Assembly (NCBI GenBank): GCA_023231475.1
Contig: JALJEE010002820.1
Coordinates: 1-34,811 of the forward strand
From: Seison nebaliae
Taxonomy: Eukaryota
DNA length: 34,811 nucleotides
Direction: 5' to 3'
The translations under genes and the position numbers were made by a program. Under the pieces are notes generated by a model. That model did no database searches, was not told the origin of the DNA, and was given only the letters and a program-made list of their open reading frames with translations. Below are positions 312-34,811 of the stretch, piece by piece (position 1 is the first letter of the stretch; the number at the start of each line of letters is the position of its first letter).

Positions 312-2208
312 TCATGTATTTTCTAAAAAAAGAAATGAAGTACTAACCAGTGAGTATCCCGAATACTTTCGATCTGCTTCATAAAATTGCTTTAGAGGTG
401 CACTAAATTTTATATTAGGACAATTCATAGAATTCCAACAGTTCATAATCTCATTCGTTGATAAATCATTCCTAGATTAATGATAATATTACATTTAATT
501 TTGATAATTGTGAAACTCAGATAAAAATTTCATAAATTCATCTTGACTATATTTTGAGACGCATTTTGAGAGAGCGGTATCCTTCGACTCGTAATACAGT
601 ATTACATTGCAAGGAAAGGCAACGGCACCTGAAAGTTTCTTTAAATTTTTAATATTTTTTTGCACAAATTCATAAATTTACAATAACTTCAGAATAAGTA
701 CATTGGATAACTATTTCCGTTTTCGGTTTAATGGAAAATTCGACATCATGATAATGATTGGATCGGATACGATTTTTTTCCTGAGTACTTACTTCGGTTG
801 TTTTTTTGCCATTAATCAGTGAAATAGAACCGCTAATATGAGGTTTCAATAAATATTGAGCTTTGAATATCTTAAGATCATCGTCTTTGATGTATTTCTA
901 ACAAAACAAAATTATAGTAATTTTGCCCACAAAAAAACCTGTGTTACTGCACTAGGACATATGTATTTTATCGTTTGTTCTTCGTCATTCATTCTAATGA
1001 ACGATCCTCGTAAATAAGAACCAATATGTAAGGACGATACCGTTTTTTTTTGCTGTAATTTATGATAAGTTATCTCGAATGTACTATTGTCGACGTAATC
1101 TGAGAATGATATGTATAAACAGAATTTGAAATGGATCTTCAACCTTCCTTCACATCGCCGTAAGTAGTTTGTATCATAATGTATTTGGATTTAATTTTGA
1201 AACCCGAATCCTTTGGAAAACTCAAGAGCTAAAGGCAAAGTCAACTCATTATAATTTCTTAGAAATTGAACTCTTTGGTTTCCTTTGTTCCAGTGTTGAA
1301 TAATAAAGTTAGTACATTCATTTAATATGTTTCCATCGATTCCACTACATCTTCCATTGGGTAAATTATGTTTTGAAACGAAGTTTATCCTAGACGAACA
1401 ACCGTACAATGTCATTTGTTCAATATATCTTCCTGCTGGCATTGCCACCAATCTGATGGCATGGTTAGTTGGAACGTCTCCCACAAGTACACAATTTTGG
1501 TCACCTGTCATGTCTGAATTAACTGATAACTAATATGAAGTTTATGAGAAGAAAAATAATCTTAAAAGAAATGAGCAACATCAGGATTCTTGTATTTTTT
1601 TTTGAATTCGTTTTCTTTCAATTGCGGTTGTGGCGGAGAATAGTATTCTAATAACTGAGTTTTTTTGTAGATTACATTTTCCCCCCTGTTAACCAAAAAC
1701 CTTGTATTGATTTTCCCACACTAAATAAATAAATTACGTTCACTATTAAAAGGATACAAACCAATAACGGAAGATCGTGATTACTGTCATTAGTAAAAAG
1801 TTTCCGTGTCATTTTAATAGTTATACCCGCGGATGACACATTCAAGAAAGTCATTCTCCAGTCATTCTGTTTATCTTCAGATTGTTCACCATCAAGAGAA
1901 TAGTAATCCTTTAATATAATTTAATTTTAGTTTAATATAAATTCGAATTAAAAAAAAACATAAGACGAATACAAATCATTTGTTGGTGAAAGTTTCTTCA
2001 GTTTTAGTACATCTTCATAATCCTTCTTATCTGTAAAGAAACCGAATTCAACCTCGTAATTTTTCGGAAATTCGAATTGTATTTTGATCTCATCTTCGAC
2101 AACATTTGAGGAAAATTTAAACTGCTTATCTTCAGATTCAACGTCTACCGCACGTAATTCAAAGAGTAATATCAAATGAATGATAATAGTTAGAAATTTC
2201 TTAAACAT
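312..2208 (-). CDS. DBH/MOXD1-like protein (signal peptide + DOMON + Cu2-monooxygenase N and C domains), ~510 aa, 9 exons; probable pseudoenzyme
   Basis: Exons 2208-1960, 1908-1762, 1720-1580, 1529-1272, 1228-1144, 1099-939, 897-688, 638-517, 471-312 join in frame across eight GTT..AG introns of 41-51 nt. DOMON-like DKQNDWRM...IKMTRKLFTNDSNHDLPL. Monooxygenase-like YIEQMTLYGC, YIMIQTTY..DYVDNSTFEITY, IKPKTEIVIQCTY and PCNVILYY..LSKCVS align with MOXD1 VHHILLYQC, YVLLEVHY..LIDNSGLRLFY, ILPGDNLITECRY and EMCLSYLLYY..LTRCAS. 3' end uncertain: an extra 25-nt intron 347-323 would end the CDS at 251. Confidence 0.8.
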
Positions 2209-2940
2209 TTTCTTCGCACTTGTTTTAATGAAGTTATGATTATAAATCAAATTTTACCGTTTACTTTATATCAATAGAGACTTTAAACAAATTGAAATTA
2301 TTTTACTCATTGACGATGTCGAACAAAACCTTATTATACTTATACGCATTATGCCTCACTGTTCCTTGAATAAATATCTATTGTCCGAATTATTTTATAA
2401 GGAGTGACACAATAAAATTTTAATCAATTTCTCATGATTTTCTAAGTGTTAATCAAATTGTATTGTTTTCTTGTTTTTGATGGAAACGGTCCATAAATCA
2501 TGGACTAGGACATTTTTTGCATTGTAATTATTCTTTAAACAATTTTAGTCATGTCTTTATCTTTTTTTAAAATGGTAATTACATTGATGATTGGGAAACT
2601 TCGAATACTAGAAAAATTATAATAGTTCGAATACTAAATGTAAAAGTTGTTGAATTTCATATTAATTATCCTATCTTCTTAACAGTTCGTTTTTTGCATC
2701 TAAAGCTATATAATACTGATTTTTCGATTAAATTTTTCGAAACCACATGACGTAAATTTTCAGATATGAACTATTACAATTCAATTGTTAAAAAGCAATG
2801 ATTGTATATCGAAAATATTACATTTGTCCTTGTTACTCCTGAGTGTTAGTTGATAGTTTCAAAGTCCGATTGTCCCATTTAACTCTCTCTCTATCAATTT
2901 GATAATAGATATTTGGAAAATAAAATTAGAAAAACTTTAT

Positions 2941-3012
2941 GGGCTTGGCCGGGGATTGAACCCGGGACCTCCCGCACCCTAAGCGGAAATCATACCACTA
3001 GACCACCAAGCC
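2941..3012 (-). tRNA. tRNA-Pro (anticodon AGG)
   Basis: Reverse complement GGCTTGGTGGTCTAGTGGTATGATTTCCGCTTAGGGTGCGGGAGGTCCCGGGTTCAATCCCCGGCCAAGCCC forms a cloverleaf with A box, GGTTCAA B box and anticodon loop TT-AGG-GT. Pol III terminator T5 at 2934-2930. Confidence 0.97.
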
Positions 3013-3394
3013 TGTAAATTAGGGGAAAATAGAAGTATTTAAGAAAAGATAATTGGAAATTTTTTAAAAAAGATAATTTGTCGGTACAAAATTTTTGGCA
3101 ATATAATCAATTTATTCTATACATCAATCAAGAAGCTTTTGAGGATATTTGTTAAAATTGATGTTTGTACTACAAACTTTGTAGCCATAGCCATAGCCAT
3201 ATAAACTAATCACGTAATGGTATGGCAATTTTCAAATAGTTCCGTTAAATATATTAACATGTTATGTTATTGCATGTTAGTTGATTGGTCTGAATAATGT
3301 GGTTGATATATATTTATATTATTATCTTAATATAATAATTAGTGTTAGGATAAATATATTATTATCTTAAGATAATAATATTATCTGATAAAAT

Positions 3395-3474
3395 CCCCTG
3401 TTGGCATTTGAACGTTTTTTTAACGTTTATATACATCAAAAAAACATTCTCAAGACGTTCAAATGCTTAAAGGG
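3395..3474. mobile_element. Small MITE-like inverted-repeat element
   Basis: Perfect 12-bp inverted repeat GCATTTGAACGT (3404-3415) / ACGTTCAAATGC (3455-3466) within CCC...GGG ends; no clear target-site duplication. Confidence 0.4.
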
Positions 3475-3927
3475 TCACTACTTCACATTAAATATCTACA
3501 GATAGATACCATACATATGATCATTGTATATCATTAGATACTATTCAGACTGTTAGAATTTCTCCCTACAATTTTTATTACTTATACGGTTAAGGATGGA
3601 AGAACAAATTATATCGACCATAAAGAGTATTTATACAATAATGTACACGAAGATCTCAGGAGATTGTAGAACAATTTGTTTATCTTCTATTTATTAGAAG
3701 ATATTTTAGATAAATAGAACCTATTTTATAGATATATATAAATATTATATATATAATGTATATATCAAAATTGGACAATAAATATAATATGATGTCATTC
3801 GATTTAAAATGTTCGTTTATCACAATAAAATTTTAAATTTTACCATATAATTGGTAATTTTTTATTCGTTCTAATATAATTTACTTCCTTCGTGGAAATA
3901 AAAATTGAAAAATGTGTTAAAATTCTT

Positions 3928-3999
3928 GGGCTTGGCCGGGGATTGAACCCGGGACCTCCCGCACCCTAAGCGGAAATCATACCACTAGACCACCAAGCC
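3928..3999 (-). tRNA. tRNA-Pro (anticodon AGG), second identical copy
   Basis: 72/72 nt identical to 2941-3012; T4 run on the minus strand at 3922-3919. Confidence 0.97.
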
Positions 4000-4290
4000 T
4001 GTACGGTCTATAAAAATAGAAATAATTGAGAAAAGGTTACAAGAATTTGTAAAACTTAAATAAATTTCGCATAATAAGATATAAAATAAATAAGTAATAT
4101 GGGAAACGTTTTGGAACAGGAATTGTTTGAGAAATTGGAATTAATATCCAAATAACGGATTTAATTTGTTAATTTTACGGTTATAAATATTTGAAAAAGA
4201 AGTAGCATCTTCTTCTTCTCTCACGGGAATTGAAAAAACTGTTACTTTTTTTGAAGACAAATCTGTACAAAAGTTGGTTCAAAATTAAAG

Positions 4291-6812
4291 TTACTTTGTC
4301 GAGTTGAAGGCAAAAGGATTTCGAGTGAAAAAAGTCGAAAGATCTGATGTAGCTGAAAGGATACTTCTAATGAATTGTCGATATACTTTCATGTAATACA
4401 TCGAATTGTTTGCGCATTTGCTGGAGATTGCGCTCTTCTTTTCTAGAATTTTGTCATTTATTCTCTTTGACGATTGTACGGGATTTAACCCTTTAATGAA
4501 ATATCCATTCACTTTAGCAGTTAGTTGAGATCCAGATCTTTTAACACCTTCCACAACATTTTTTAAAGACTCCATAATGGACTGATCCGTTCCTAATCTC
4601 TCTTTAATCCACAATTGTATTTGTTTAATAGCGGTAGCAATTTTACATTTTATTTGCTTGACGTATAATTTAACGTCGATCGATGATAGTCTGGTAACAC
4701 TATCCATTGACGGTAATTTGTTATAGATATTCATCGATGGTAATTTGTTATATATATCCATTGATGGCAATTTATTATAAATGTCCATCGACGGTAGTTT
4801 ATTATAGAATTGCATCGATGGTAATTTATTATAGATATCCATCGATGGTAATTTATTATAGAATTGCATTGACGGTAGTTTGTTATAAATATCCATCGAT
4901 GGTAATTTATTATAGAATTGCATTGACGGTAGTTTGTTATAAATATCCATCGATGGTAATTTGTTATAAATATCCATCGACGGTAGTTTATTATAGAATT
5001 GAATTGACGGTAGTTTATTATAGATATCCATCGATGGCAATTTGTTATAAATATCCATCGATGGCAATTTGTTATAGACATCCATCGACGGTAGTTTATT
5101 ATAGAATTGAATTGAAGGTAAAATATTGTAAATATCTTTTGGTTTTTCTCTTAATAAATTAAAAAAATTTTTTTTGGGAATTTTGTTATACATATCGATT
5201 GACGGTAATCTATCGCGAATAAAGTTTGGGACTAATTTTCCGTAATTGCCGATAAAGTACATTTTTGCACACTGGTAACGGTACTGCATATTTTGAATAA
5301 AATTGTTATACATTTCTCTTACTGATGGAAAGGTAGTGGGTTTTTGAACTTTTTCCGGTAGATTCGTTGACCACATATGTTGATAAGTATCATATAATCG
5401 ATTAGAATACTTCGTTAAAAAACTTTGTTCCATTTTTTTCTCTTCTTGTTCGACCGATGAGGAAAATCGTGGCATATAATCGTAAAGAGATTCGAAATAT
5501 GATTCTTCTAATTTGTCATCGGCAGAAATGGTGTTGGGAATGTTTTCCTTCGAAATAGTGAATGATGGAAATATATTAAAGAACTTATTATAAAAAATTC
5601 CATCATCTTCCGCTTCTTCTACCCTATATTCCTCAATTTTCCTTTCAGGTGTTTCGTGAGAATTGAAAAAGAATGCAGGAATGGCCCAATAATATAATCC
5701 GAATGTTTTTTCATTTTCTAATTCCTTCTTTTCATTCACCATCGTTTCATTCACTTCTTCAGATGATTCTTCGTTGGGTGTGGAGTTGTGTGAAAAAAAT
5801 TTTTTAAAGTCAGTCCAATAATTCTCCACCGGTTTCTCGACGTCTGTGATCGGTTTTTGAACGGTTCTTTTATGAAACTTGTCGATATCGATACTTTGTA
5901 CAACTTTCTTGATTTCTTCAGAGACCACCTTATTATGTTGGACAAAATTGTTGGAAGATTTAATGAAAAGATATCGTAATGCGAAGAAAGCGATGAGAAT
6001 TAAGACTAAAATGATGAAAATCGACATCAATCTGGTGACGATGTATGCCCTGGATTTATTACTATGACTAGCATTAATTTTGAAGAAAAATTTTTCATTC
6101 GATGAATCTTCTTCTGGTGGATAATTGGATACGTTGAGCGTCATATTTGTCGATTCGAAAATTGTTTGATAAAATAAAGCGATCTTTGAAAAAATTTTAT
6201 TCTCAAAATTCCCGCTCTCATAACCGATTTTTGATATTTCATAAAATATTTCTTCGATTAGAACGGCAAATAAGGCGAACGAGAATAATTGGACGAAATT
6301 GGAGAAGGAAAATTGGGATTTGTGTCTTCCATTCGATTGTGGCAGTTCAAACTGTTTGAGATTAATTGAACTTGGTGGTAGTTGAGTAGTAGTCGCAGAT
6401 TCTACCGGTGTGTTTCGTAAAATGCGGGAAAAGAAGAGTAGAATAAAAATAAAGTTGATGGAGAAAATGAGAAATATAGAATAAAAATTATCAGGGAAAA
6501 TTGGAAAGTTTCTTGTTTTACTTATCCGTTTGGCTGTTTCATTAAATTGTTTCTTTAACTTACCAAATTTCTTATGAGAATTTACGAAAAAATAACAGAT
6601 GGATGTAGCGATTGTGGCGAGAATCAGTTTCGTAATAAGTGAGTTGTTCACAGCTTAAAACAAAAAAAATTATTTGACACAGAAAGAATTGTTGAAGAAC
6701 CTTGAAATATCGACATCATATCGAAGTTAATCATATAGAGTCGACAACGTTCGATAACGTGGAATAGAATCAGCAAGGAGAAAAGATGTTTGAATTGAAT
6801 ATCGTTCGTCAT
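4291..6812 (-). CDS. Uncharacterised membrane protein (~4 N-terminal hydrophobic segments) with a 9-aa tandem repeat, ~820 aa
   Basis: 786-codon open frame 4291-6651 lacks an ATG start. A phase-1 GTT..AAG intron (6700-6654) joins it to an upstream exon starting at ATG 6812 (MTNDIQFKHLF...). No family recognised. Confidence 0.7.
4699..5130 (-). repeat. 27-bp coding minisatellite, 16 units encoding YNKLPS(M/I)(D/Q)(I/F)
   Basis: Direct reading of the ORF: one YNILPSIQF unit plus 15 YNKLPSxxx units, with degenerate units on both sides. Confidence 0.95.
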
Positions 6813-8040
6813 TGTCCTCCTTTGTCATTAACGAAGAAGAAAGAAATAGCCTGAAGATGAGGGGGAGAAGAGAATTACACAAGTAAAACGAATATTGACC
6901 GGACTTCTCTTTCTCAATACTTCCTCCCAATTACTAAAATGAAGAAGAGAAAGATAAATACTTTACATAGGAAGGAACATTTATCCGTCCCTCATACCAG
7001 ATATGATCAATTGTTAATAAATTGTTTAACATATTATCTATGATCCCAATTGAAATGGGAGAACTATAAATTTATATTTAATCATCATTTAACAGTCATT
7101 TACTTGAAACATTGATCGCTAATCATGGTTCATTATAAACATGTCAGAAGAAGACGAAACATGGAAGTGTTTGGATGAATTGGATGAGAGATGATGGACA
7201 AATTCTTGATTGTTCTCAATCATCAGGTAAGAAGCAGCAACACGAGAATCATAGAGAAATGAACGCGATGTAATATTGTCTGTTCTTTTCACAGTTACGA
7301 TAATATAAAAAATAAAATCACAAAAATATGAGTAGTTATTTCTCCTTCCTACCAAACACAACCGATACGGAGGAAAGGAGAAGTAATAATTTATATTCCG
7401 AGGTCAAATACAGAGAAAATGTAAGTAGCTACCAATCGGAATGATGTATCGAATTTTTTTACATATTTCAATTATATAGTTTTTTATATTAAAATTATAT
7501 TATTTCTCCCCGTAGTAACAAACTTGAACGGAAAGACGAACAACAATTCATTTTCGTTACTTGTTAGAACTATAACGAATCGACTCATTTATTCGACTTT
7601 CTCCAAATAAATCTAATAGACATTGAAAGATGCATATTTTCAAATTTAGTTTCGACGACCCAATTCTTTAACAATTTAACATGAATTCTTGTTAATTGTT
7701 AATTTCAATAGTAATTTTATTTAAAATTAATTTTTAAAATTTAGATGTCTTTATCCAAAATGAATTGTTTGCAATATTCCTCTGAAAGAAATTTATTTCT
7801 CAAAGATAATTTTAATAATCAATAATATTCATTTCTTACTGAAAAATTTTAATTTAATTTTCTTAATTTAATTAATAACGGTAACAACCGAGATTGCGGA
7901 GATATGACGACGCTAGCAATTTGATTGTTGAATTGTCTTCGGTTTGAGACGATAATTGAGTTAAAAGTTTATTCTCTTTAATGATATTGCCATGAGAAAC
8001 GCTGAAGATTTTTTTTCTAATTTCATTCGGATTGTGAGGA

Positions 8041-8484
8041 ATGGAGAATTTAGAAGCGGAGAATTATGAACATCGACAATTCCAAAAGAAGAAAACGGAA
8101 ATATTGAGGAATATGACGGCAGCTGATTTGGATGATTTAGAGAATCCGGATATTCCTATCGCATATTTTTGGACAGTTGAAGATGTGGGACGTTTTATGG
8201 CTGATCTCGATCTAGCTCAATATATTCCTGCCTTTAAACTCAATTCCATTGATGGGAAGAAACTTATAAATATTTCTGCGTCCACTTTGCCACATATGGG
8301 AATTCAGGATTTCTTTCATATGAAACGAATAACAGCTGCCATCCGTTCTGCTATGAGAATCAGCAACCCAAATACATTCAAGTCGGTCGCAGATGAAAAG
8401 TTGAGTTTATATGAACAATATTTATATTACAAATCGAAAACGGGAATTGAACGTGATCGAACTCCATATTCGAACTTCTTGTAA
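8041..8484 (+). CDS. SAMD15: Sterile alpha motif domain-containing protein 15-like
   Basis: SAM motif WTVEDVGRFM..LAQYIPAF..NSIDGKKLI..STLPHMGIQDFFHMKRI, plus a tail YLYYKSKTG matching SAMD15 YLEQKGHTG. Intronless. Confidence 0.75.
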   Translation: MENLEAENYEHRQFQKKKTEILRNMTAADLDDLENPDIPIAYFWTVEDVGRFMADLDLAQYIPAFKLNSIDGKKLINISASTLPHMGIQDFFHMKRITAAIRSAMRISNPNTFKSVADEKLSLYEQYLYYKSKTGIERDRTPYSNFL

Positions 8485-8949
8485 CGATTATCTTAATTTC
8501 AGTCATAAATGAATATCAAAATGCATTTTCGAAGTTTCTTTCAAGTTAGTTTGAAGTTTAAAATCAAAATGAGGTTTAAAAGTATCTGATAAGCTATATA
8601 CGTTTTTTGTTCGATGACTTTTGAGTAGGCCTGTATATATTTATTATAAAATCAATTATCAATATGAGAAGAAATATCGAAATTAGAAGTAATATGAACA
8701 GCTTCATCAAAGAATAAGTAAGTTCAGTGAAATGATAAAAGAAAAAAATATTGAAAAAAAAAATGAAAAAATAAAAATGAAAAAAGTTTCAATTCGCCGA
8801 TGGAAAAATAAATATTCTATTGAATAATTCACAACCTAGAAGCATCATAAGGACTTAAGTCCTGGCAAGGACTTATGACTGTAAAAGAAAGAAACGGCTA
8901 GTTCATAAAAATCACAACAATAAGTGACGAATAACTTTAACTTCAATTG

Positions 8950-10080
8950 AATCAAAAAATAAGTGCAACGATGATGAAACGCATAAAAACATCTAAAGAA
9001 CTCACATCTAATTTCGACAGTCGTAGCAAAAGTCTTCTTATTATCAAGTTTTATTTCCAGAGATATTCTTCTCCACTAATTTTCTCATATTACCGTCGAT
9101 GGACGGAAGAGAAATGTTAGTAAAGATTTAAGATTTATCTTGATGTTACTATCTTACCGATAACAAAAAATTTCAATTTGTTCTACATTGTATCGAATTA
9201 TTGCAACAAATGAGAATATCATCTGCATAAGGAAAGACTGATGGGGAAATTACAAGTAATTACAAGTAACAACATAGTATTTTCATAAGTAAGAAATTTG
9301 TTAATCATTCTTCCAAAGATCCGAGGAACCAATATTGAATGTTGCCCGACTTCTTTATTAATTTTGAAGAGCGATGAAAATAAAGACTTTAGATTAGCAA
9401 TACCATAAGCATTGGTGAAAAGTAAGGAATAAATTCATCCATTCTAAATTTATGTCACATTCATTTTCTATGGTCCATCGAATTAAAAACTTTGGAAGTG
9501 TGCAAAGAATAAAAGAGACACTTGCTTTCTGACACTCGACATTACGAAATAAAGAATTTAAGAACAATAAGAAAAAGTAGCATTCTTCTGTAAGTATTAC
9601 GATATGTGAAAATTGAAGAACAAGATTATACAATTGTGTTGGAAAACTATTTTTTATAACTTGTTCAATATAATAAGTATGGATTTGGTGTTATTGGTAT
9701 GGAAAGTGATCTAAAAGAAGATTTATTTACTCTACCGAGAAGAATTTCATTCATGTAATCAGTTAGTAGACCTAATGAACTATGTTTCAGATTAGAGATT
9801 ATACATAAAAACCATCTTCATCATGTGAATAATTAACATTCATATATGACATTGCAATCCATAATTCTCCAACAGTAACTAACAAAAGAGAAAAGAACAA
9901 GTTCCAACATCAATTGGACAATGAATTAAATTCGGTGTTATCATTTCAGTTTTGAGGTAACGAATTTCATGAAAGCTCGAAATCATCCAATTCTTATGAT
10001 TTCTCTGCCAATTTTTGATCTGCCCAGTTATATGATGATCGTTAAAGTTTCCGTTTAATATTTAACAAGCTGTTTTCCAT
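8950..10080 (-). mobile_element. Degenerate non-LTR retrotransposon (LINE) relic with APE endonuclease and reverse transcriptase fragments
   Basis: Minus-strand fragments in the expected order: ILNGNFNDHH (APE GDFNAHH-like, ~10060-10030), IHCPI (SDHxPI-like), SFRSLSI (YRPISL-like), SLFKINKEVGQHSILVPRIFGRMIN (GVxQGSxLxPxLF-like) and FPYADDILI (YADD at 9229-9218). Many stops and frameshifts; boundaries approximate. Confidence 0.7.
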
Positions 10081-11443
10081 AAAGACTAATCAATCATTTT
10101 TTTCTACCATGTAAGTTTTGAGTAGTTGTTGTTTAAAATTTTTGCTATTAAAAAAATCGTCGTATAAAAAAAAATGATCTGATAAGAATCATTATATGTC
10201 GATTTTTTCATTTTTGTCTATTTATTCAAAGAGAACTTCATTTTAATAAATCCATTCATTTTATTCAACTTATACGAAATTATAACAATAGATTTAAGAT
10301 GCTCTCTAAAATCTAAACGTTTCCTGATTTTATAAGTTTAATATATAAATAATTCTCAAATTAGAAATTATTCAAATTACAACCTTCAAAGTTTGAAGAG
10401 TTTGGTTTGAAGTTCAAACCTTATGTAATAAGGGAAATCTTAATCATTGGGAATTTTTGGACTAAAACCGTAATCAAACGAGTCCATCAGTTCTATGTAT
10501 TTATTGAATTTTGTTAATAAATTTTTTTCAGATTTTAAACAATGATGGTATGATGTTCAATATTTGGAAACTAATTAAGATTATATGTGCATTTTATAAG
10601 CTATTCTGCATAATTTTTTTTCATTCGCAAAAAATAAATTGCATATTTTGCTCCAATTTATTTTTAACATATTGTGTAATTTTCCAACTTATGTAGATGA
10701 AATAGGGACGAGATATTCCCTTGTAGTAGTTCATTGATCTGATAATTGTATTAATAAAGGGAAAATGAAAAAACTATATTTTTTATAACAAATTTTGAGG
10801 TCAACAGAGCATTTTCAATTTTAACGTCAATATCTAATGATGTAATAACGATATACTTTTAAAACAAAAAATCGACAGTATATAATAACTTTTAAGAAAA
10901 GAAGTTTGCTTTAAATTTTCAAAATAAACTTTTTCGATTAAAATATAGTTATTTGAGGGAGTAGAAACCTTCTTTACAGAATGAGTCCTGTCTGAATGTT
11001 TTTAATGAGTCTTTAGTATTCACTTCATGTGCCTTCTGTTTTTTCGTGGGGTGAAAGTGAGAATATGTTAAAGAAGAATAATTTGAAATGATGAAATTGT
11101 CCTTAAAGATTTCACATCAAATCATATCTCCACTCTTTCTTCTTAAATAACAATTCAGATTGTGAAACTAAGTGCTTTTGGAAGTGAATATTTGATTTGT
11201 GCTTTTCTCTTTTCATAAGACCAACAAGTAGAATTGCTATCATTGCTCTTATTATGTTTGTCGAGACTTCTTGAAAGAAATGTGACATTTGACGATTAAA
11301 CGATAATTGAAAGAAGACAACTGATATAATAGAATATCTTCATTGCTTTTCGCGAATAAAATCAATTCTACAATTAATTTCTTTTCCTTATTTTTTTTTC
11401 TCAATTAGTCAGTAGAAGAGAGCAATCAAATAATTTTCATAAA

Positions 11444-24108: not shown

Positions 24109-24879
24109 TCTTTCACTTCAAGTTATTTAATGAGAATCACTTCGTTAGTATTGTTTCAATGTTAATCTTAGTTTTCAATTTCAATTCCAATTTAATCATT
24201 TCTTTTTCAACTCACCCATTTGAATATCTCTTTCATAGTGTCTGCAATTGATCTTCCTAAAAATGTTCGTAATAATTCTAGCGATATCGACATAATTTCT
24301 TATATCGTCTACAGTTTTTCTTATACAGTTATTTCATTATATATCAAATAATTAAATCATAGTCCATTAATAAATAAAAAATTAATTCTTTAATCACAAT
24401 CCATATCTTTATTTTTCTTACAAGACCTTCCTTACATTGTTGTTAGTTTAACCATCGATCTTCGTTGTCTCTTTTTTTTTAAATTTTATTTCTTATTAAA
24501 AAATTTTTAAAAAAGTTACATTATTCTCCAACTTATCCTCACAGGATATTCAATAATAAATAATAATAATAAACAGCATATCATATACTTATTTCAAAAT
24601 TGTAATGTTCATCCACGACTTTGTCCATCGTTTGTTTGTCCTTGCTGATAACATTTAAAGAAAAAGATTCCAACATGACAGTTGGATAATTCCAGGTTTG
24701 ACATTGGATAATTATGAACTAAAGTGACATCGAATTTCCTGTGAACATTTGACATTTATTCCCATTTCACCTCTCTTCAATCCTATTTTATCTGATCGCC
24801 TTCTACATTTCAATACGTTTCACGATAGGTAGAGATCTCCTATCACTGACCGTAAGGTAGGAGATCGATCAATTAATAT

Positions 24880-25260
24880 TAAATTGCCCAGATTGGGAAC
24901 GTCTCGGATAATTGAAGGAATTATTCTACAATGTTTGGACATATTTCTGTTGTGTATTTGTACAATCTAATATATTTATCGTATGATGTTGAACCAAATT
25001 CATAAGAAATCGTTCTGTGAGAGATCGATGTGCTTAAATCGGAAATATAATAATAATAATTATTATTTTTTATGTTCATAATGTTGCGACAAGAACTTTT
25101 CAAACTGGTCCTGTTAATTATAATCCATGAATCTAAAATGATAAGACTCGATTCCTTTGTACATTTTGAGCAAATTATCCAGACTTGATATTGATCCTAT
25201 AAATATAGAGTATGTACCGAGGATAGGTAAATGAATGAGTCTGATGCATATTTGGAGACT
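24880..25260 (+). mobile_element. Possible highly decayed Ty3/gypsy RNase H fragment
   Basis: Interrupted peptides TSRIIEGIILQ (cf. DASxxGIGAVLxQ) and INIEYVPR..NESDAYL (cf. IxYxPGxxNxxADALS) in the right order; weak similarity. Confidence 0.3.
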
Positions 25261-27318
25261 TTTTGACCATTCATGGTGACATACCTATTCCAATATAATT
25301 ATACACAATGTAGAAAGTTTAATTCAGCGGCGCTAAAATGATTGTAATCTAAATCTGCTTATAAATTTTACTTCTTTTTAATTCATTTTTTTAACATAAA
25401 ATTTCGTTGTCACATTTTTTAAAGAAGTTTCAACATTGTGCATTAAAACTGATTTATTAATTTGTTTCTTTTATGACAAGTATGAATATTGTATATGTTT
25501 GTCAATGATGTCCAACCGTTCGATATCCGATCTAATCAACCAATTTATACGCACTATAAATTTGCACTATAATTATTAGGGTGAGCACGCTGTGACCATT
25601 TTATTAACATTAGTAGAAGTGGAATGAATTATTGAAATAATTTTTCATGTTTTTTCCACCTACAACAATTTTTTTTATCACTTAATCTTGAACGAAGTCA
25701 TAGATTGACTCACGATGAAACGAAGGGAGATAAGAACAAAGCGATTCAATCTTTTTAGTTAGTGTTTCTATTTACAAGTGTTAGTGTAAGTGTTTATTGG
25801 AATTGATGGCCATATCGTCATCATATATATAATATCACACTGATTGAACTATAAGTTTTAGGTTTTATTATGGGCTAAAAGCCGCTAACGAATTACTAAA
25901 GATAAGATAAGATATTATGTAAACCAAAACTCATTTCAATTTTCAAATGATTTCAACGGGAAAGTAATTTACCTGAAGAAGAATTTCTATAATTTATAAT
26001 GAAAATATATTTTCATTAAATATCTAAAGATTTATATATTTATCTAAATATTTTATTTTAATTTCATAAATCGTATAACAATATGAATTATTTAGATGAT
26101 GATCATTGATATCAATAACAAATTATGAACCGAATGCATGCAATTGAATGATATATTGATGGTCCCATAAAATAATTTTCTTATCATTTCTGTATTAACG
26201 ATTCCCAATGGCATTGGATGAGGAAATGAATGCGAATCTAACCATTTTTTGTTTTTCTTTTTATATTTCCTTCTCTAGTTCTCTTCGTTAGTCATTTTTT
26301 CTTAGTCTCTTATTAACCTTGACCGATCCGCCAACATCTACTTGTGTCATATCTTTCGTCGTATTATGAATTCTTCTTCTTTTATCCAATGACCAGGAAC
26401 GTAGTGGAAATAATTACATATTCCATGGAAATAACCTATATATCGAGATAGTTCTCTCTTAACATCCTCCTTCCATAACTAGGATGAGTTATACAATTCT
26501 TATTTTTACCATTAATTCCTAAATGATGGTTTGAATCGACATCCACCGATCAGTAGCCAAACGAATAAAGCGACAATCTCATTATGATAATGATTAATGT
26601 TAGCTGATAATCGAAATCTATCATGTGGATCTTACCAAGAAAAATGATTTTATTCGATAACATCAAAGCGACTGATATACAGTAATGTTTCTTCAATAAT
26701 CTTCTTTCTTGACTTATCGATTCAAAGATTATGAATTCGAATAAAACATGTTATTCAAAATAGATTATTTGGACGTTAATGGAAAAAATTCCATTTATCT
26801 TTTTTCATTTTCATCCAATTTCTAATACCAATTTTTGTTTTTCGAATTGCAAATCTTTTATTGAAACTGGACAACAATAAGGCCTTTTATGATTTTATTA
26901 TTTAATACCAATTTATATTTAATTGTTACATATCTCACCTTTCGAGTAAGAAATTTTTCGATAGTTATGAAGAAGAGAAATTATAGTTTTTTTAGAAATA
27001 ACTTTTCCTTGGTGAAATTTAAAATTTTTTTCCAACATCCAAATTTGGGCTTTAACCGACTTTTAACACCAACGACCGAAATGATCAACGGCCCATGTTG
27101 AGCCCGTTAATTGATCGGCAATTGACTTTTTAGTCGTGAACTTAAATCGAACTCCGAATTTATTTCATGTTACTCCCGTTCCCAACCAAACATTTATAGT
27201 TTGAGGTTATTTTATGTAGGAAGAAAATGAACAGATGTGAAGTTTTATTACTTTAATATAAACACAAAATATTGCAATATTGTGTTTTGATATTTTATTA
27301 TGTATTCAAATGAGCGTT

Positions 27319-28629
27319 TTATTTCTTTAGCATTGCACAAATTTTACGGATATCTCCCATGTTCTTAATGATGGAACGAGTAATAGTCTGAGGTTTTTGA
27401 TAGGTGAAAAATTGACTAGTATTCAGTTGTGTTGAAATGAGAACGAGTTTATTCTTCGATTCAGACCAACTTTTTAGTCGTTGAAGTATCAGATGTATCA
27501 TTAAGCGAATGAAAGAGATAATATCGGATAGTTCCATACTTAATCTCTTTTTGAACTGAAAAGAATTTTGGGCCTTCCCATATACAAATTGTAGTTCGGA
27601 CATTTTATTAAATTGTGCTTCTTGCAACTGATCGAAAAAGGTTGGAAATGCTAGATACTTCCCGTCTAAATATCTGAGGTCTTCCCGTTTACCTTGAACT
27701 TTTTTCGACAAAGAAATTTTCTGACGATGGATATACGCCACGGAATTTAATATCATTATAACTGATTCTCTTTTCGGCCTATTCCTTCCCAATAAACTCA
27801 TCGGCTTTATTTCACATTTGGATGAGGTCATTGGATGAACGGTAATCGTCCTCACATCAATCCGACTGACAGCCATTACTGGTAATTGAATTTCCATATT
27901 TGAATTTTCTAGTAACAGACGTTCCTGACTGGAGAAGTTGCACAAATTATAATAATGTCTACTTAAAGCTCTATTGATTTGTTTCACCATTTGACGGCCA
28001 TCTTTATCTGCCGATTGGAAATCAAATTGTGACTTATCTCTGATGGTAGTCGCCGTCGTTAAATTACTTTTTTCAACCAAACACTGTCTCATTAAGTTTC
28101 GAATGTCTGAAGTTAATTCATCACATACGAACTTATATAAATCTTTCAAATAATCTGTCGTGCGATTTTTTATGTCAATCTTCGTCAAGAGAGACATATA
28201 GAGAATTAAATGATCTTTTTTCGATGACGACTGTCTATCCATCATTTTGACTTGATCATCCAATAATTCCAGTTTCTTTTTAATATCATCCAACTTCTGT
28301 TGCTGCAACATGATCCGATAATTATATCCATTCATTTTCGACGTATAAGTATTTTTTGTTTGTAAGCAAACTGTTCGTTTACCTGTTTTACTTATGAAAT
28401 CATTGTCCTCTCTCAATGTACGATTTCTTTCCTTCAGCTTAAAAACTTCCACATTCAAATGGAATCTTTGCTCTTCACATATCTTCATTTTTTCTTTTCG
28501 ATCATTCATCAAAATGGCTAAATGTTTCTCCTCGTTCAACATTAGTGATTTCAGGTAAGTCAATTGTTTCACCATGACTTTCCCGCAAGCACCTGAATCG
28601 AAATCAATTTTAGATTTATCTCCGCTCAT
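27319..28629 (-). CDS. Coiled-coil protein, possibly of the outer dynein arm docking complex (CCDC151/ODAD3-like) family
   Basis: 436-aa ORF, heptad-rich; weak resemblance LAILMNDRK..FKLKERNRTL to ODAD3 IQLLEGDRK..QLRxENKxL. The ORF is well supported; the family call is tentative. Confidence 0.6.
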   Translation of the reverse strand: MSGDKSKIDFDSGACGKVMVKQLTYLKSLMLNEEKHLAILMNDRKEKMKICEEQRFHLNVEVFKLKERNRTLREDNDFISKTGKRTVCLQTKNTYTSKMNGYNYRIMLQQQKLDDIKKKLELLDDQVKMMDRQSSSKKDHLILYMSLLTKIDIKNRTTDYLKDLYKFVCDELTSDIRNLMRQCLVEKSNLTTATTIRDKSQFDFQSADKDGRQMVKQINRALSRHYYNLCNFSSQERLLLENSNMEIQLPVMAVSRIDVRTITVHPMTSSKCEIKPMSLLGRNRPKRESVIMILNSVAYIHRQKISLSKKVQGKREDLRYLDGKYLAFPTFFDQLQEAQFNKMSELQFVYGKAQNSFQFKKRLSMELSDIISFIRLMIHLILQRLKSWSESKNKLVLISTQLNTSQFFTYQKPQTITRSIIKNMGDIRKICAMLKK

Positions 28630-29116
28630 TTCTAATCAAAAATGAATTTTAAATTAACTAAACCACTTTCTTACCGTTCCTTCTTAATAATCTCCATATA
28701 TAAACTATTTTCCATCATATATAAAATCGGATAAATTTTCTTTCTACTTTTCCCCACAAACATTTTTTATTTGACACCTTAAAAAACAGAAGATATTTCC
28801 CTAGTGACAGAAATAGGAAATGCCAAATTTGTGATTCTCATGATTAATAGGATGAAGGTAGGAAAGCAATTGCTTTAAATGATTTTCATGTGATGATTAT
28901 GAATGTGATCATGATTATGGACTATTTTGATGTAATTTACAATAACAAATTAGTCATGATACTTATTAAATCTTATCATTAATAGGAGTTATGAAAAATG
29001 AATGTGGGTATATGATATACGTGGAAGAGAGTTCAAATTTTATTTGTGAAATATTTCTAAAGATTTTGTTTATCCCACTTGATTAGAGATGCGTTATTTT
29101 CCAGAAGAATGACCTC

Positions 29117-31219
29117 TCAATTAGCGGAATGAAAAAAGATTGGAGGAGCAGAATAATCTTCATATGGAAAATAGTTGAAGTCGATATCTCGGAAATATTG
29201 AGTACGTTTTACATTTTCCGAACCGTTGATACCATAACCGAGTCGTGCACGAACTAATCGACGCAAAAGTCGTTTAAGGAATTCGTTTAATATTTTAATG
29301 TCATCATTCGTTTCTTTCGGTAGTTTGATATCTTCATAACAAATTTTACTCTTCAATAAGTTCACTTGAGTCATATGTAAATATTTTTCGAATGGATTCT
29401 GAGAGGAAAATATTAGAATTTAGATGATTGAAAATTAAAGATAAACCAGTCCCGTATACATGAGATAAATCAGAATACCGAGAGACCAATAATCGCAACT
29501 GTTGTCAAAGAAGAAATTGAAGAGAACCTCCGGCGCAATAAATGTATAATCAGAAATATCAATATGACAAAGATCGTTCGATGTTCCTCTCGAATTCCAA
29601 TGGAAATTGGATAAGGAATATTTGAAATCGGTTAGTATTGGATAATTGTTGTTTGTGAATCGAATGGATTCGGGTGAGAGACAAACGACTGATATATTCC
29701 TCTTATGTAAGTACATGATGGCGAGAAAGATGTGAGCCGCATAAACTTTGGTGACTTTATAAGAAAGTCGTTTGTAATTCTCCAATACATTCTTCAATGA
29801 GAATTGTGAGTATGATTTCATTATTAGATAATAGTCGTTATCACAACGTCCGTTTAATAAGATGGTTGGAAAGAGATTATCATTATTCGTACACTTGTTC
29901 AATATTTTTAATTCCTTCTCATAAATTAGTAGTTCTTCAGGTTTGTTTTCGAATTTCTTAAATGACACTAGACCATGTTTGGGATGATAAGCTAAAAATA
30001 GCTGAAAAGATATTTAAAAAATATTTTCGATTGATGTTCTAACTATATCTGTTCCCTCCATTTTCGTTACACTATTAAAATCGTGCAAGCTAATCGGATT
30101 GACGACGGACAAATCAACTTCTTCGTCTCCTAAATGTTCGTTGTCAGTTGTCGGAGTATTTTCCAAGTTAATTTGTATGTCGAATTCAAATCCTTCGGTG
30201 GAACGATTGAAAGGATCATAAGAATTCTAAAGAGAACCTTTCGCTTCCTGCCAATAATATTTTCTGCATTTCTCCAATTTCTTCCTACAAAACTTTCTCA
30301 TTATCATCAATCTTTTAGGCAGTTTCTTCGTTTCGACGATATCGCAAATTTTATGTAGAGCTTCTTGGAATAAGAGTTCGCGAAGATAAACCTTTTCAAT
30401 TGCGTGCACTAAAAAGTTTCTATCTGAAGAGAAATCTAAGAAATGAAAAAAGACAGTTCGATAACTTTCAATGTCTCTGTCTATCGTTGTAATGGATGGG
30501 GCGTCAGTCATCACTCGATGTCCATGTTCCAATTGTATTGATTCTCTTATGCCGTCCATGTTTGTCTCGCCCATCACTATCGTATCGTCATGACAAATGA
30601 GTTGTGGCATTTCGCTCTCATACGATGTCAATTGTTTTCTGCAGATTTTCGATTTCCTACGTTCTGTCGTTACTAATGCCTGTTCGAAACTAACGAACAA
30701 ATTATTTTTAATACTATTCTCTTCAGATTCACCACAAGAAATATCATCCGAATATTTCCTGGTTATCATATCAGCGATCATAGTTTTATAATTGGAATCC
30801 ACTTTCTTCACGTCCCTCAACACACAGAAAGATTTTGTGTTATTTATTTTTGTGGATCGATTCGGACTAAACTTCTCCTGTTGAGCAATCCATAACGATT
30901 GATTCTCTCCTTTCCCTTCTTCGAATTTATATGCCACCGCCAAATCTTCCATACAATCGATGACAGATATTCCCATTTTCGAATTCGATCTCGTATCAAA
31001 CAACGTATTGAGAGAACGATCGCTGAGCGTTTTCTCTTCCTGTGTGAAAGAATCTTTCATATCTTCATCCTTCTCCATTACCGGTATGGAAATCTTCTTC
31101 ATGTCCAATGTGCCGAACGATGTTGGCTGAGAAATAAATGTTGATCGCGGTTCGGATAACGAACGTTGTACATCCTCTAATCCACTCGATCTGCTACATT
31201 TATTATAGCTACAGTTCAT
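29117..31219 (-). CDS. AGC-like pseudokinase with a long low-complexity N-terminus, 4 exons
   Basis: Exons 31219-30238, 30192-30044, 30001-29447 and 29398-29117 join in frame via GTT introns of 45, 42 and 48 nt. Kinase fold motifs YAAHIFLAIMYLH, LTDF, FIAPEV, DYWSLGILIYLMYTG.NPF and YFRDIDF. Confidence 0.82.
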
Positions 31220-31512
31220 GATGAAAGTAAATCAAGTTAAAAGGCATTTAACTAAATTGTCTTTCATTTCAATTTCCCTCTCCTTATATCCAATCGCCGA
31301 TGAAATGATTTTCCCGTTTCATCCATAACGAGAAGATAATCTTATTAACAACCAGCTCATTTTCCTCAAGAAATAATTTTTCTTCAACATATTTATAAAT
31401 AACGACCCACTTTTATCAAACGTCTTTCTAAAAAGTTGAACTGTGAAAATAAAAACAAAATTTCAAAAAAATTTCATTAAGTTTCTTTAGATTTTCATTC
31501 AGCATTCCTAAC

Positions 31513-32526
31513 ATGAATGTTAGTGAAGAGTACCTTCAGAAGTATGTTGCAGGTCGTGGGGTCATTTTGGGTTACGCATTTCCGGTGACAATAATTTGTG
31601 GGATCATATTAAATGTTCTATCGATCCTGACAATTCTGTTAAGTACGGAATTGAATTCGAAAACTACATTTCGCTATTTCGCTAAACTGCTGATGGCGGA
31701 CACGGCAATATTGTTGGCTTATATGAAAGAACCGTTCGAATATTGGAATATGTATATTAACGACAAATCGATGTGTAGACTGTTGCATTATTTCCGAATC
31801 GCTTTACATCATTTCTCCGCATTCCTAGTCATTATAACGACAACAGATCGTGCAATACTTATCACTTTATCGAAGAGGACAACACTCCTTCAGAAATTGC
31901 GCAAACCCAAAGCTGAAAAAATCATTTCGGGAACAGCTCTTGTGATTTCACTTCTGTTGTCAATCGACATGTTATTCTACCAAACCGTTACCGTATTACC
32001 AAACGAAACATTCTGCGGATTACCACGTAAGAAAACAGATGAGCATTATAATATTTCACGATTATTATTTGTGATTCATATATGCATTTTCTCATCGGTC
32101 ACTTCGACAATCTGTTTCTTCTTAACTATAATTATCATATGGAAACTAATAAGTCATCAACGTCGACGATCAGGAAATAAACTAAGAATTAAAAATGAAG
32201 TAACCATCGATGAAACGACAACGACAACATCAACGAAAAGGTTTAGACCTAAAAGGAAAGTGACCATTGATCGTCATTATAAAACGTCGATTACACTCCT
32301 TTACATCGTTTTCAGCGTCATCATTCTAAATATTCCAATCGATTTATTCTTTTATTATTATCGAACGGCTCCCTTACCTAGTGAAACAGTTTTCTTTATA
32401 CATTCTACTTGTATTTATGCAGTCATCGTTCGTCACTCTATTCATTTTTTCCAAATGTTTGCTTCTTGTCAACAATTCCGCTCTGCAACCCACCAATTAA
32501 TTGGCTGCACAAAAAGAAGCAATTAA
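31513..32526 (+). CDS. Class A (rhodopsin-like) GPCR, probably a neuropeptide-receptor-like orphan; intronless
   Basis: Seven hydrophobic segments; GIILN (TM1), LMAD (TM2), Cys at the top of TM3, TDRA (DRY variant), ECL2 Cys, LNIP (TM6) and helix-8 QQFR. Confidence 0.9.
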   Translation: MNVSEEYLQKYVAGRGVILGYAFPVTIICGIILNVLSILTILLSTELNSKTTFRYFAKLLMADTAILLAYMKEPFEYWNMYINDKSMCRLLHYFRIALHHFSAFLVIITTTDRAILITLSKRTTLLQKLRKPKAEKIISGTALVISLLLSIDMLFYQTVTVLPNETFCGLPRKKTDEHYNISRLLFVIHICIFSSVTSTICFFLTIIIIWKLISHQRRRSGNKLRIKNEVTIDETTTTTSTKRFRPKRKVTIDRHYKTSITLLYIVFSVIILNIPIDLFFYYYRTAPLPSETVFFIHSTCIYAVIVRHSIHFFQMFASCQQFRSATHQLIGCTKRSN

Positions 32527-32805
32527 TTATTGAATGGATATATGTCTCAAAATTTTTTTACTGCAAAATTTCCCTTTAAATTTTGTCTAGCATTCGGTTA
32601 ATGAAATTCACATTACAATACTTCTTTTCCCTTCTTCAATTCATCTTTTCTTCTATTTTTTGAAGTTCCTTCGTTCATTCCATTCCACTTACTTATCGAA
32701 TCTCTCAAATATTACAATTGAATTATAATAAATTTTAAATATAATAAAATTATCCTGATTTATTTCATGAATATAAAAATATGTAGAAACATCATCTGCT
32801 ATGGT

Positions 32806-32872
32806 AAACGGAACGTATTTCCGATCTTTCTCTTTTCTTCCAAAAATTGATAAAACGGAACGTATTTCCGAT
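32806..32872 (+). repeat. 20-bp direct repeat AAACGGAACGTATTTCCGAT x2
   Basis: Identical copies at 32806-32825 and 32853-32872; may be transposon subterminal repeats. Confidence 0.8.
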
Positions 32873-33334
32873 TTTTTTTTCGCTCTCCTTAAATAACATT
32901 TTCCTTATATAAACAAATAGGACTTATCCGAATCAACGTCATTGACGTTCCATTTAGATCAATTTTAAAAAGTTCTGTAAACTAATAAGTCAATAATAAA
33001 GTCCTAATTTATTCAGTTAAACTACGCAGTTATTTAATCAAGTTATCCGAGTTCCATGCGTTAAAAATTTTACGAATTATGCTTTATTAAATTACTTGAT
33101 CTTTTAAGTAAAATTTTACAAATTTTTGACAAGTTTCTATTTTATTACTGTTTGGGATTGTAAGAATAATTTTTCAAAAACTATTCTAATTTAAAGAATA
33201 AAAAATTCGGAAACTAAATGTCCACCGAAAAATTCCATTTTCCCCAACTGGTAAAAAATTTATGGGAATTTTGTCTTAATAACATAAGTCCTATCACATT
33301 GTATAAGGAAAAGGTCCTTTATGTATAAATACTT

Positions 33335-34213
33335 TTATGCCGAAATACCATCAAACGAAAAACTGAATTTCAAATTGGAAATAAATTCGGAAAAATCGGA
33401 GCGAAATTTAAAATGCTTCCTGAGAATTTTTTCTATCCCTATATAATAATATGATATATCTGTAGAAAATTTTTTGGTTGAGGTTGGAAATAAAGTTCTG
33501 CAACTTTTCGGGAAATTTTTATCGAGAGGATTTAAAACCTTGTGTAAAAGTTCGTCGATAAGTGTGTTCGTTAATTTGTGATCGATGCAAATTCTCTTAA
33601 ATTCATTAATCGGCGTATTTTGTGTTAGGTGATTAGGGGAAGTGGTGCCGGAGTTACGATTGAGTAATGGAAAAGATGAGTTGCATGATAAAAATGAATT
33701 GGATTCGGAAGATGAAAAAGAGGAAGAAGAAGAATGCGATGGAGAGTATGAAGATGTTGGAGATGATGAAGATGAATGAGGATATGAATGAGAATATAAA
33801 GAAGGAAATGAATCAGTATGAGACAACGGAACATCCAAAGTTTCCTCTAAAGATTTTGAGCATTGAAAATGTAATTGCGATTTGATGGCATTTTCAGGAT
33901 CTTTTTCATTGTACGTTGTTTTTTCTTTCTTTAATACGTTAATGATATTTTTCATAATCGCATCCATATTGTCAATTTTTTGAATAATTGAATCAAATTC
34001 TTCATTCACGTTGATTTGTGTTTTTTTAACGAATTGATAATTGTTGGATAACGGATTGGATTTATAAGATATTTCTTCAATATTGCTCGTTTTTGTTCGC
34101 AAAATGTTAATGATGTTTTGTTGAATCTCATGAATATAGTCGACTGTTTGTATAATCGATTGAAATTTTTTGTCCATAATGTTTTTTATTAAATAAAAAT
34201 ATACGTTCATCAA
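33335..34213 (-). mobile_element. Truncated CACTA/EnSpm-like transposase ORF
   Basis: LLHKVL..NFPKSCRTLF..YYYIGIEKIL..LKFSFSFDGI matches the LPKDxRTLL..YxHFGI..IxLxINIDG pattern of animal CACTA-like transposases. The ORF stops just after the first catalytic Asp. Confidence 0.6.
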
Positions 34214-34484
34214 ATATATATGACTCTTTTTATACCTAGGTTAGGTTTACATCTTAAACATTGTAGAAATAATAGTAATTAGACAATTATAATATGATTC
34301 CAATTATAATTATTAATTTATAACAATTAATTGACCAGATTATAAATAAATCAAGCAAGACAATTGCAAGATTGTAATCCTGAGATCGTATCAATTGTGG
34401 CGTAATTATAATTACACACATACAACTATATAAATATGTAGATTAGATTAGAACCTTTAAGATTATTACATAAAAATTAATATC

Positions 34485-34811
34485 ATGAAGTACTTTATTG
34501 TTACGATTATGCACCGAGGAAAAGAAACGCTTTGCATATGTAAGGAAGACTGGATAATAGTAAACAGTATGGGGAATAAGTTAAGGTGGAACGACAGGTG
34601 TTTAAACTCGACGGAAAAATTAAGAGAATATTTAGAAGGAAAAGAAGAAACAAATATTACTCGATGGAAACAAATATCTATAAAAGAAATCGTTCGATCC
34701 TCACGTTAGTTTATTTTTTCACAATATTCTGAATATTTTTATTTATTTTTTAGATAATTTAGATAAACTTTGGAAATTTTATGACATGAAAATGGCAAGC
34801 GGAAGATATTC
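34485..34811 (+). CDS. 5' part of a spliced gene resembling the second (accessory) ORF of CACTA-like elements; runs off the window
   Basis: Exon 34485-34704, intron 34705-34753 (GTTAGT..TTTTAG), then open frame HNLDKLWKFYDMKMASGRY. The MxxFIV..W..W..W spacing resembles N-termini of DUF4806-type transposon proteins. Divergent from the transposase remnant. Confidence 0.55.

Follow-up and report, generated by a model that had tools for sequence, protein, structure and literature searches.

GTT-initiated introns in a Seison nebaliae contig suggest a changed third donor base in an animal

All verified introns of a contig from Seison nebaliae, a marine rotifer of the Seisonidae, begin with GTT. Among 28 verified donors (5' splice sites) in this stretch of 34811 bases (JALJEE010002820.1, assembly GCA_023231475.1; analyzed whole and called the window below), the third intron base (+3) is T in every case and never the purine of the typical animal donor, GTRAG. 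That these introns start with GTT is a real, confirmed feature. We propose, with a probability of about 0.5, that it reflects a genome-wide switch of the third donor base of the major spliceosome from A or G to U, through a predicted one-base change of U1 small nuclear RNA (snRNA) from ACUUAC to ACUAAC. A sequence-only reading of the window had claimed that every intron starts with GTT; 26 of its 29 donors are confirmed here, and two further donors defined by transcripts are also GTT.

Results

Transcript junctions come from the GMAP map of genome-guided Trinity transcripts in supplement 2 of the genome paper (PMC8351084, available in part), where 19,906 rows are listed and at least 24 belong to one contig whose exon coordinates equal those of the window. 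These rows hold at least 20 gaps with 19 distinct donors, and on the minus strand every gap can be read as GT..AG and starts with GTT. Ten of the 20 gaps allow no slide and the remainder each allow a single GT..AG register, so that removal from GT to AG, as expected of U2-type introns, is seen in 20/20. One more donor, at 347, is defined by a transcript alignment that stops at 348 and continues on another contig, bringing the transcript-defined donors to 20. Both this donor (GTTAGT) and the one at 30465 (GTTATC) were absent from the sequence-only reading and thus serve as out-of-sample tests. All donor hexamers listed in that reading lie where it had placed them, and 18 of the 29 donors coincide with transcript gaps, 17 to the base and the one at 30237 after an equivalent slide of 1 nucleotide (nt): eight in a DBH-like gene, four in a carbonic anhydrase (CA) gene, three in a pseudokinase gene, and those at 6700, 15048, and 15278. 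Checked for other donors, the transcript junctions among the rows listed use GTT only, with nearby GTA and GTG skipped. Some isoforms retain GTT introns (CA 21611, 15048, and 15278). All spliced rows among those listed represent minus-strand genes, and none of them covers SLC6, the regulatory subunit of protein kinase A (PKA-R), or the gene at the contig end.

The eight SLC6 donors of the sequence-only reading recur in the NCBI model SNEBB_009202 and were ranked by homology: a hidden Markov model (HMM) built on 109 homologues from outside Seison scored each junction together with all G[TC]..AG pairs that keep the frame within a distance of 36 nt. In 8/8 cases GTT ranks first, above GTA, GTG, GTC, and GC alternatives, leading by 1.4 to 28 bits wherever there was an alternative; two margins are small (1.4 and 5 bits), and one junction has a single candidate. 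When the dinucleotide rule is dropped, the junctions are placed within a few bases and the GTT register ranks anywhere from 1 to 18, ties included, so that homology fixes the SLC6 junctions only jointly with the GT-AG rule. For the DBH-like gene, which encodes the DOMON/monooxygenase-like protein SNEBB_009199 (a partial NCBI model), there was no useful foreign homologue (2 unrelated matches) and no PDB match, and its introns therefore rest on transcripts.

Mapped back on the window, the NCBI proteins of S. nebaliae yield GTT introns throughout SLC6 (9/9), CA (SNEBB_009205; 4/4), and the DBH-like gene (9/9), 22/22 together, and contain all 20 introns that had been read from sequence in these three genes. 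They are not independent proof, as the available passages of the genome literature do not state how the models were derived. Contigs of four sequencing runs over 11400-17300 show no intron joints, and two long SLC6 pieces keep their introns and match the window exactly, which carries no weight either way. The verified set of 28 combines the 20 transcript-defined donors with the 8 homology-ranked SLC6 donors (Table 1). Introns seen only in NCBI models, at 11529 (GTT), 19598 (GTT), 1693 (GTT), and 19541 (GTG), are unverified and do not enter the count; a transcript keeps the one at 1693 as exon. The candidates at 20190, 20293, and 34705 have open frames and are not fixed, and GTA, GTG, and GC alternatives in PKA-R likewise keep the frame.

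Table 1. Introns and donors of the window, with the evidence for each
Position	Strand	Gene or locus	Donor..acceptor	Length (nt)	Evidence and remarks
342..347	-	DBH-like, tenth intron	GTTAGT		Runs off contig; transcript end at 348; NCBI partial model ends here
472..516	-	DBH-like	GTTTCA..TAG	45	Transcript gap, NCBI model
639..687	-	DBH-like	GTTATT..AAG	49	Transcript gap, NCBI model
898..938	-	DBH-like	GTTTTT..TAG	41	Transcript gap, NCBI model
1100..1143	-	DBH-like	GTTGAA..CAG	44	Transcript gap, NCBI model
1229..1271	-	DBH-like	GTTCAA..TAG	43	Transcript gap, NCBI model
1530..1579	-	DBH-like	GTTGCT..TAG	50	Transcript gap, NCBI model
1721..1761	-	DBH-like	GTTTGT..TAG	41	Transcript gap, NCBI model
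1909..1959	-	DBH-like	GTTTTT..AAG	51	Transcript gap, NCBI model
6654..6700	-	Long repeat-bearing open reading frame	GTTCTT..AAG	47	Transcript gap; open frame
11884..11937	+	SLC6	GTTACA..TAG	54	NCBI model; HMM rank 1/4
12666..12714	+	SLC6	GTTGTC..TAG	49	NCBI model; HMM rank 1/2
12800..12846	+	SLC6	GTTTGC..CAG	47	NCBI model; HMM rank 1/4
13242..13284	+	SLC6	GTTAAT..TAG	43	NCBI model; HMM rank 1/8
13426..13508	+	SLC6	GTTAGT..TAG	83	NCBI model; sole in-frame candidate
13609..13653	+	SLC6	GTTCAT..CAG	45	NCBI model; HMM rank 1/7
13755..13802	+	SLC6	GTTAAC..TAG	48	NCBI model; HMM rank 1/3, over GTA alternatives
13974..14032	+	SLC6	GTTTGA..TAG	59	NCBI model; HMM rank 1/4, small margin
14882..15048	-	Non-coding host transcript	GTTAGT..TAG		Transcript gaps, acceptors 14893 and 14882; C/D snoRNA-like element inside (Rfam)
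15091..15278	-	Same host transcript, 14793-15409	GTTAGT..TAG	188	Transcript gap; second C/D snoRNA-like element (Rfam)
19541..19575	+	SF3B1 tail	GTGTAA..TAG	35	NCBI model, probably false call; no transcript row among rows listed
20190..20253	+	PKA-R, candidate	GTTAGT..TAG		Sequence-only reading; open frame; alternatives exist
20293..20346	+	PKA-R, candidate	GTTGAA..TAG		Sequence-only reading; open frame; GTA/GC alternatives exist
21556..21611	-	CA	GTTAAA..AAG	56	Transcript gap, NCBI model; retained in one isoform
21849..21891	-	CA	GTTCCA..AAG	43	Transcript gap, NCBI model
22000..22040	-	CA	GTTTAA..CAG	41	Transcript gap, NCBI model
22196..22250	-	CA	GTTAGT..TAG	55	Transcript gap, NCBI model
29399..29446	-	Pseudokinase	GTTTAT..CAG	48	Transcript gap
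30002..30043	-	Pseudokinase	GTTAGA..CAG	42	Transcript gap
30193..30237	-	Pseudokinase	GTTCTC..AAG	45	Transcript gap after 1-nt equivalent slide
30424..30465	-	Pseudokinase	GTTATC..CAG	42	Transcript gap, no slide ambiguity; in-frame; new
34705..34753	+	Contig-end candidate	GTTAGT..TAG		Sequence-only reading; open frame; no transcript row among rows listed, no homologue

T follows GT at a frequency of 0.395 in the window as a whole and has a frequency of 0.47 in the interior of introns. At the higher rate, 28 of 28 would be expected with a probability of 0.47^28 = 6.6e-10; counting the transcript-defined donors alone gives 0.47^20 = 2.8e-7. If donors are taken as independent, the real GTT share has a 95% lower bound of 0.90 (28 donors) or 0.86 (20 transcript donors). 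A total of 48 unused GT dinucleotides (18 GTA, 8 GTG, 10 GTC, and 12 GTT) occur no more than 25 nt from 27 of the true donors, and the 6729 nt of aligned transcript blocks hold six GTRAG sites versus one GTTAG. Unused GTRAG sites with 7/9 canonical matches stand inside these blocks at 792, 6563, 21785, and 23366. GTC is found in 0/28 donors (p ~5e-4 if any pyrimidine served).

Around the fixed +3 base, the context of U2-type donors, of the kind read by U1, U5, and U6, persists as enrichment of A at -2 (19/28, p 2e-4), G at -1 (11/28, p 0.018), and G at +5 (9/28 versus a background of 0.08, p 1.7e-4). The sequence-only reading had given G at +5 in 6 of its first 23 donors; that count is correct, and the base is enriched rather than lost. 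GTTAGT is the commonest hexamer (5/28). The donor of U12-type minor introns is RTATCCTT, which was present in 0/28, and this class was rejected. Introns are short, 24/27 measuring 41-59 nt, and the 27 acceptors divide into TAG (14), CAG (7), and AAG (6). The AAG acceptors lie at 639, 1909, 6654, 21556, 21849, and 30193, two of them reading TTGGAAG in the CA gene. Simple pattern searches revealed no clear branch-point motif, matches to NYTRAY being scattered or absent in the AT-rich introns.

Other features of the window

The introns of the spliced non-coding transcript at 14793-15409 each carry a C/D-box small nucleolar RNA (snoRNA)-like element on the minus strand, at 14954-15014 and 15166-15234. 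Against Rfam snR61/Z1/Z11 these elements score 39.0 and 33.4 bits, short of the 45 at which the gathering threshold is set. This transcript is likely a snoRNA host gene.

The long open reading frame at 15891-19589 encodes SF3B1 (NCBI protein SNEBB_009203), which is divergent and whose conserved part has no intron. Its branch-adenosine pocket has Ile at the position of human V1078 and Ala at T1077, while K700, R625, H662, K666, and G742 are unchanged; excerpts of PMC5458519 report that V1078I makes human cells weakly resistant to splicing modulators.

A second long open reading frame, at 4291-6810 on the minus strand, has a tandem peptide repeat, YNKLPSM[DQ][IF], near 4700-5100 and no Pfam match. 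Two tRNA genes, by eye tRNA-Pro, lie about 1 kb apart at 2941-3012 and 3928-3999 on the minus strand with equal Rfam scores. Relative to RII-alpha, PKA-R (20347-21279) has about 36 residues inserted into its first cAMP-binding domain.

Discussion

The donor consensus GTRAGT reflects complementarity to U1, according to the available text of PMC1779574. A U opposite +3 would accept A or G, giving the usual purine rule; an A there would pair only with U, and the purine rule would collapse onto a single base while other positions stayed loose; a G would accept C and U. The exclusive use of GTT with no GTC thus points to A, not G, opposite +3. ACUUAC to ACUAAC would be the simplest such change and would also match the modal GTTAGT, and the Entamoeba precedent, in which donor and U1 are both altered, favors a U1 change for Seison. 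That ACUAAC makes more pairs with these donors than ACUUAC was rejected as evidence, since one pair is gained by construction. No U1, U6, or other spliceosomal snRNA is present in the window. A metagenome scan for U1 with a noncanonical base facing +3 returned 38 matches, none of them ACUAAC, and is uninformative for Seison; 37 are chance matches by inspection (L014 also lacks an Rfam hit). The match at L022 3509-3668, on a metagenome contig, is a true U1 snRNA (127 bits) with the 5' end ACUCAC, either a variant or a pseudogene. Taken to its full extent, the proposal would mean that in Seison the 5' splice site has been re-coded for the first time in an animal, with nearly all introns of an intron-rich genome converted to GTT, a U1 reading ACUAAC, a consensus loose elsewhere, and a spliceosome partly orthogonal to those of other animals; we rate this slightly below an even chance.

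Several points weigh against this proposal. The sample is one 35-kb contig, and the claim of the sequence-only reading that an animal spliceosome has switched its +3 specificity, well supported for the contig, is extrapolated from it to genome and lineage. The NCBI model of SF3B1 has a GTG-starting intron (19541), the sole non-GTT donor met. This model places two introns in the last ten codons, GTGTAA (35 nt) and GTTAAC; because the frame without them is open to the stop at 19589 and the tail is not conserved, both are probably prediction noise and the GTG intron a false call. One transcript row, 13287-14121, covers four SLC6 introns unspliced and is of indeterminate direction; it is possibly antisense or unspliced RNA over the 3' half of the gene. 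Neither A at +4 (12/28, p 0.12) nor T at +6 (14/28, p 0.44) is enriched, and the enriched bases do not single out U1, as -2A/-1G and +5G fit U5 loop 1 and U6 equally well. In a codon-shuffle test of exon decoys (4295 codons, 23 patterns), GTT is depleted (z -2.7) but so is GTA (z -3.7), and exon counts are 4 versus 8.6 for GTTAG and 7 versus 5.7 for GTAAG. Finally, yeasts, Giardia, Trichomonas, Thecamonas, and Mamiellales have donors changed at +4 with an unchanged U1, according to the available portions of Roy and Bowser (10.1101/2022.06.08.495308).

The best-placed alternative, though an unlikely one, is that the switch is real and genome-wide with a canonical U1, and that +3 U is imposed at a later step, either by an altered U6 ACAGAGA box in which the G that faces +3 has become A or by altered proteins (U1C, LUC7, SNRNP27K, SNU66, or PRP8). 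After U1, +3 faces G44 of U6, with which the usual A or G pairs weakly (excerpts of PMC11732430), and G44A would explain GTT-only and the lack of GTC equally well; the contacts of U1C are described as sequence-agnostic (excerpts of PMC10599564). Splicing proteins of Seison are fast-evolving, SF3B1 differing at 86/667 near-invariant columns versus no more than 15 in 118 other animals, a divergence that may be part of general fast evolution, and the lineages just named show that donors can change without U1. Set against this, Entamoeba, the only precedent for +3 U considered here, kept its U6 ACAGA (10.1101/2022.06.08.495308), and a canonical U1 would form at most 4 Watson-Crick pairs with 16/28 donors between -3 and +6 (one donor computed 1 nt off register).

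It is distinctly improbable that both snRNAs are canonical, with short introns defined by little U1 pairing and +3 U selected through wobble with U6 G44. The length of the introns (24/27 under 60 nt) and the little information that donors carry beyond GTT suit such a mechanism, and Roy and Bowser, in the available text, suggest wobble and extended U6 pairing for GUUUGU (10.1101/2022.06.08.495308). G44 should, however, take C as well, by Watson-Crick pairing, yet GTC is never seen; T at +4 (8/28) falls below the intron background; and the absence of GTA, normal in other animals, would go unexplained.

Composition offers a very unlikely account, in which GTT is a strong bias arising from AT-richness or a local property of the contig, with many GTA and GTG donors elsewhere in the genome. 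T is the commonest base after GT and in introns, and a true share of 0.9 would yield 28/28 with p 0.05 in a single contig, but the probability at background is that calculated above, six unrelated loci on both strands agree, and A, abundant at 0.31, forms no GTA donor despite the 18 unused GTA nearby. Least probable of all, the introns might be recent copies of a mobile element (introner) ending in GTT, as their uniform short length and a mean pairwise local score of 15.3, slightly above that of shuffles (14.6 +/- 0.2), might suggest, but there is no shared body, and only 1/351 pairs exceeds the shuffled maximum (40 versus 29 +/- 3), this being the two snoRNA-bearing introns, which we attribute to snoRNA paralogues. 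In addition, the SLC6 junction that follows the GGG motif and the CA junction that precedes the third zinc-binding His probably occupy old animal intron positions.

Full-text literature searches, with most subscription journals outside their scope, found nothing published on GTT donors in Seison, nor on a +3 U consensus in any animal. The available passages of the genome paper (PMC8351084) use "intron" twice and "splice" once, with nothing on donor sequence. Literature searches likewise found no donor data for bdelloids, monogononts, or acanthocephalans, and the accessible parts of PMC10125929, PMC11347140, PMC11347168, and PMC3464624 hold no rotifer donor data.

The purine at +3 is among the most constant features of animal donors. 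A genome with an invariant U there, and other positions loose, would be a natural experiment on which part of the machinery (U1, U6 G44, or a protein) enforces +3, and would also test how thousands of introns can shift in step with the machinery that recognizes them and yet not be lost in large numbers; the known cases of U1 co-evolution are amoebae. In practical terms, gene predictors trained on other animals would miscall introns in the Seison lineage.

Comparison with known systems

Nematodes, and perhaps bdelloids, have a minority of GTT donors, and Seison might be the extreme of a trend among rotifers. Like the U2-type introns of other animals, those of Seison have GT-AG ends, enrichment of -2A, -1G, and +5G, intron-encoded C/D snoRNA-like elements, alternative acceptors, and retained introns. 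They differ in having T at +3 in 28/28 and never a purine, in AAG at 6/27 acceptors, and in showing no clear branch-point motif by simple pattern.

Comparison with other lineages relies on the available portions of Roy and Bowser (10.1101/2022.06.08.495308). The lineages with a pyrimidine at +4 (Saccharomycotina, Giardia, Trichomonas, Thecamonas, and Mamiellales, together with Mastigamoeba, whose U1 is ACGUAC) share with Seison, as proposed here, a lineage-wide departure from U1-complementary donors. There, however, the change is mainly at +4, mostly in intron-poor genomes and mostly without a U1 change, whereas Seison changes +3 in an intron-rich animal.

Closest is Entamoeba, the one +3 U lineage in that work, where five species have GUUUGU donors (88-90%) with a U1 of ACAAAC and an unchanged U6 ACAGA (10.1101/2022.06.08.495308). 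The likeness is U at +3 of GT-AG introns, and a U1 change of the same kind is what we predict for Seison. Introns are few in Entamoeba and start with a fixed hexamer, GUUUGU(U), with +3 and +4 both changed. Seison, by contrast, is an animal some of whose genes have 8-9 introns; here only +3 is fixed, GTTTGT accounts for 1/28 donors, and the residual canonical form is GTTAGT.

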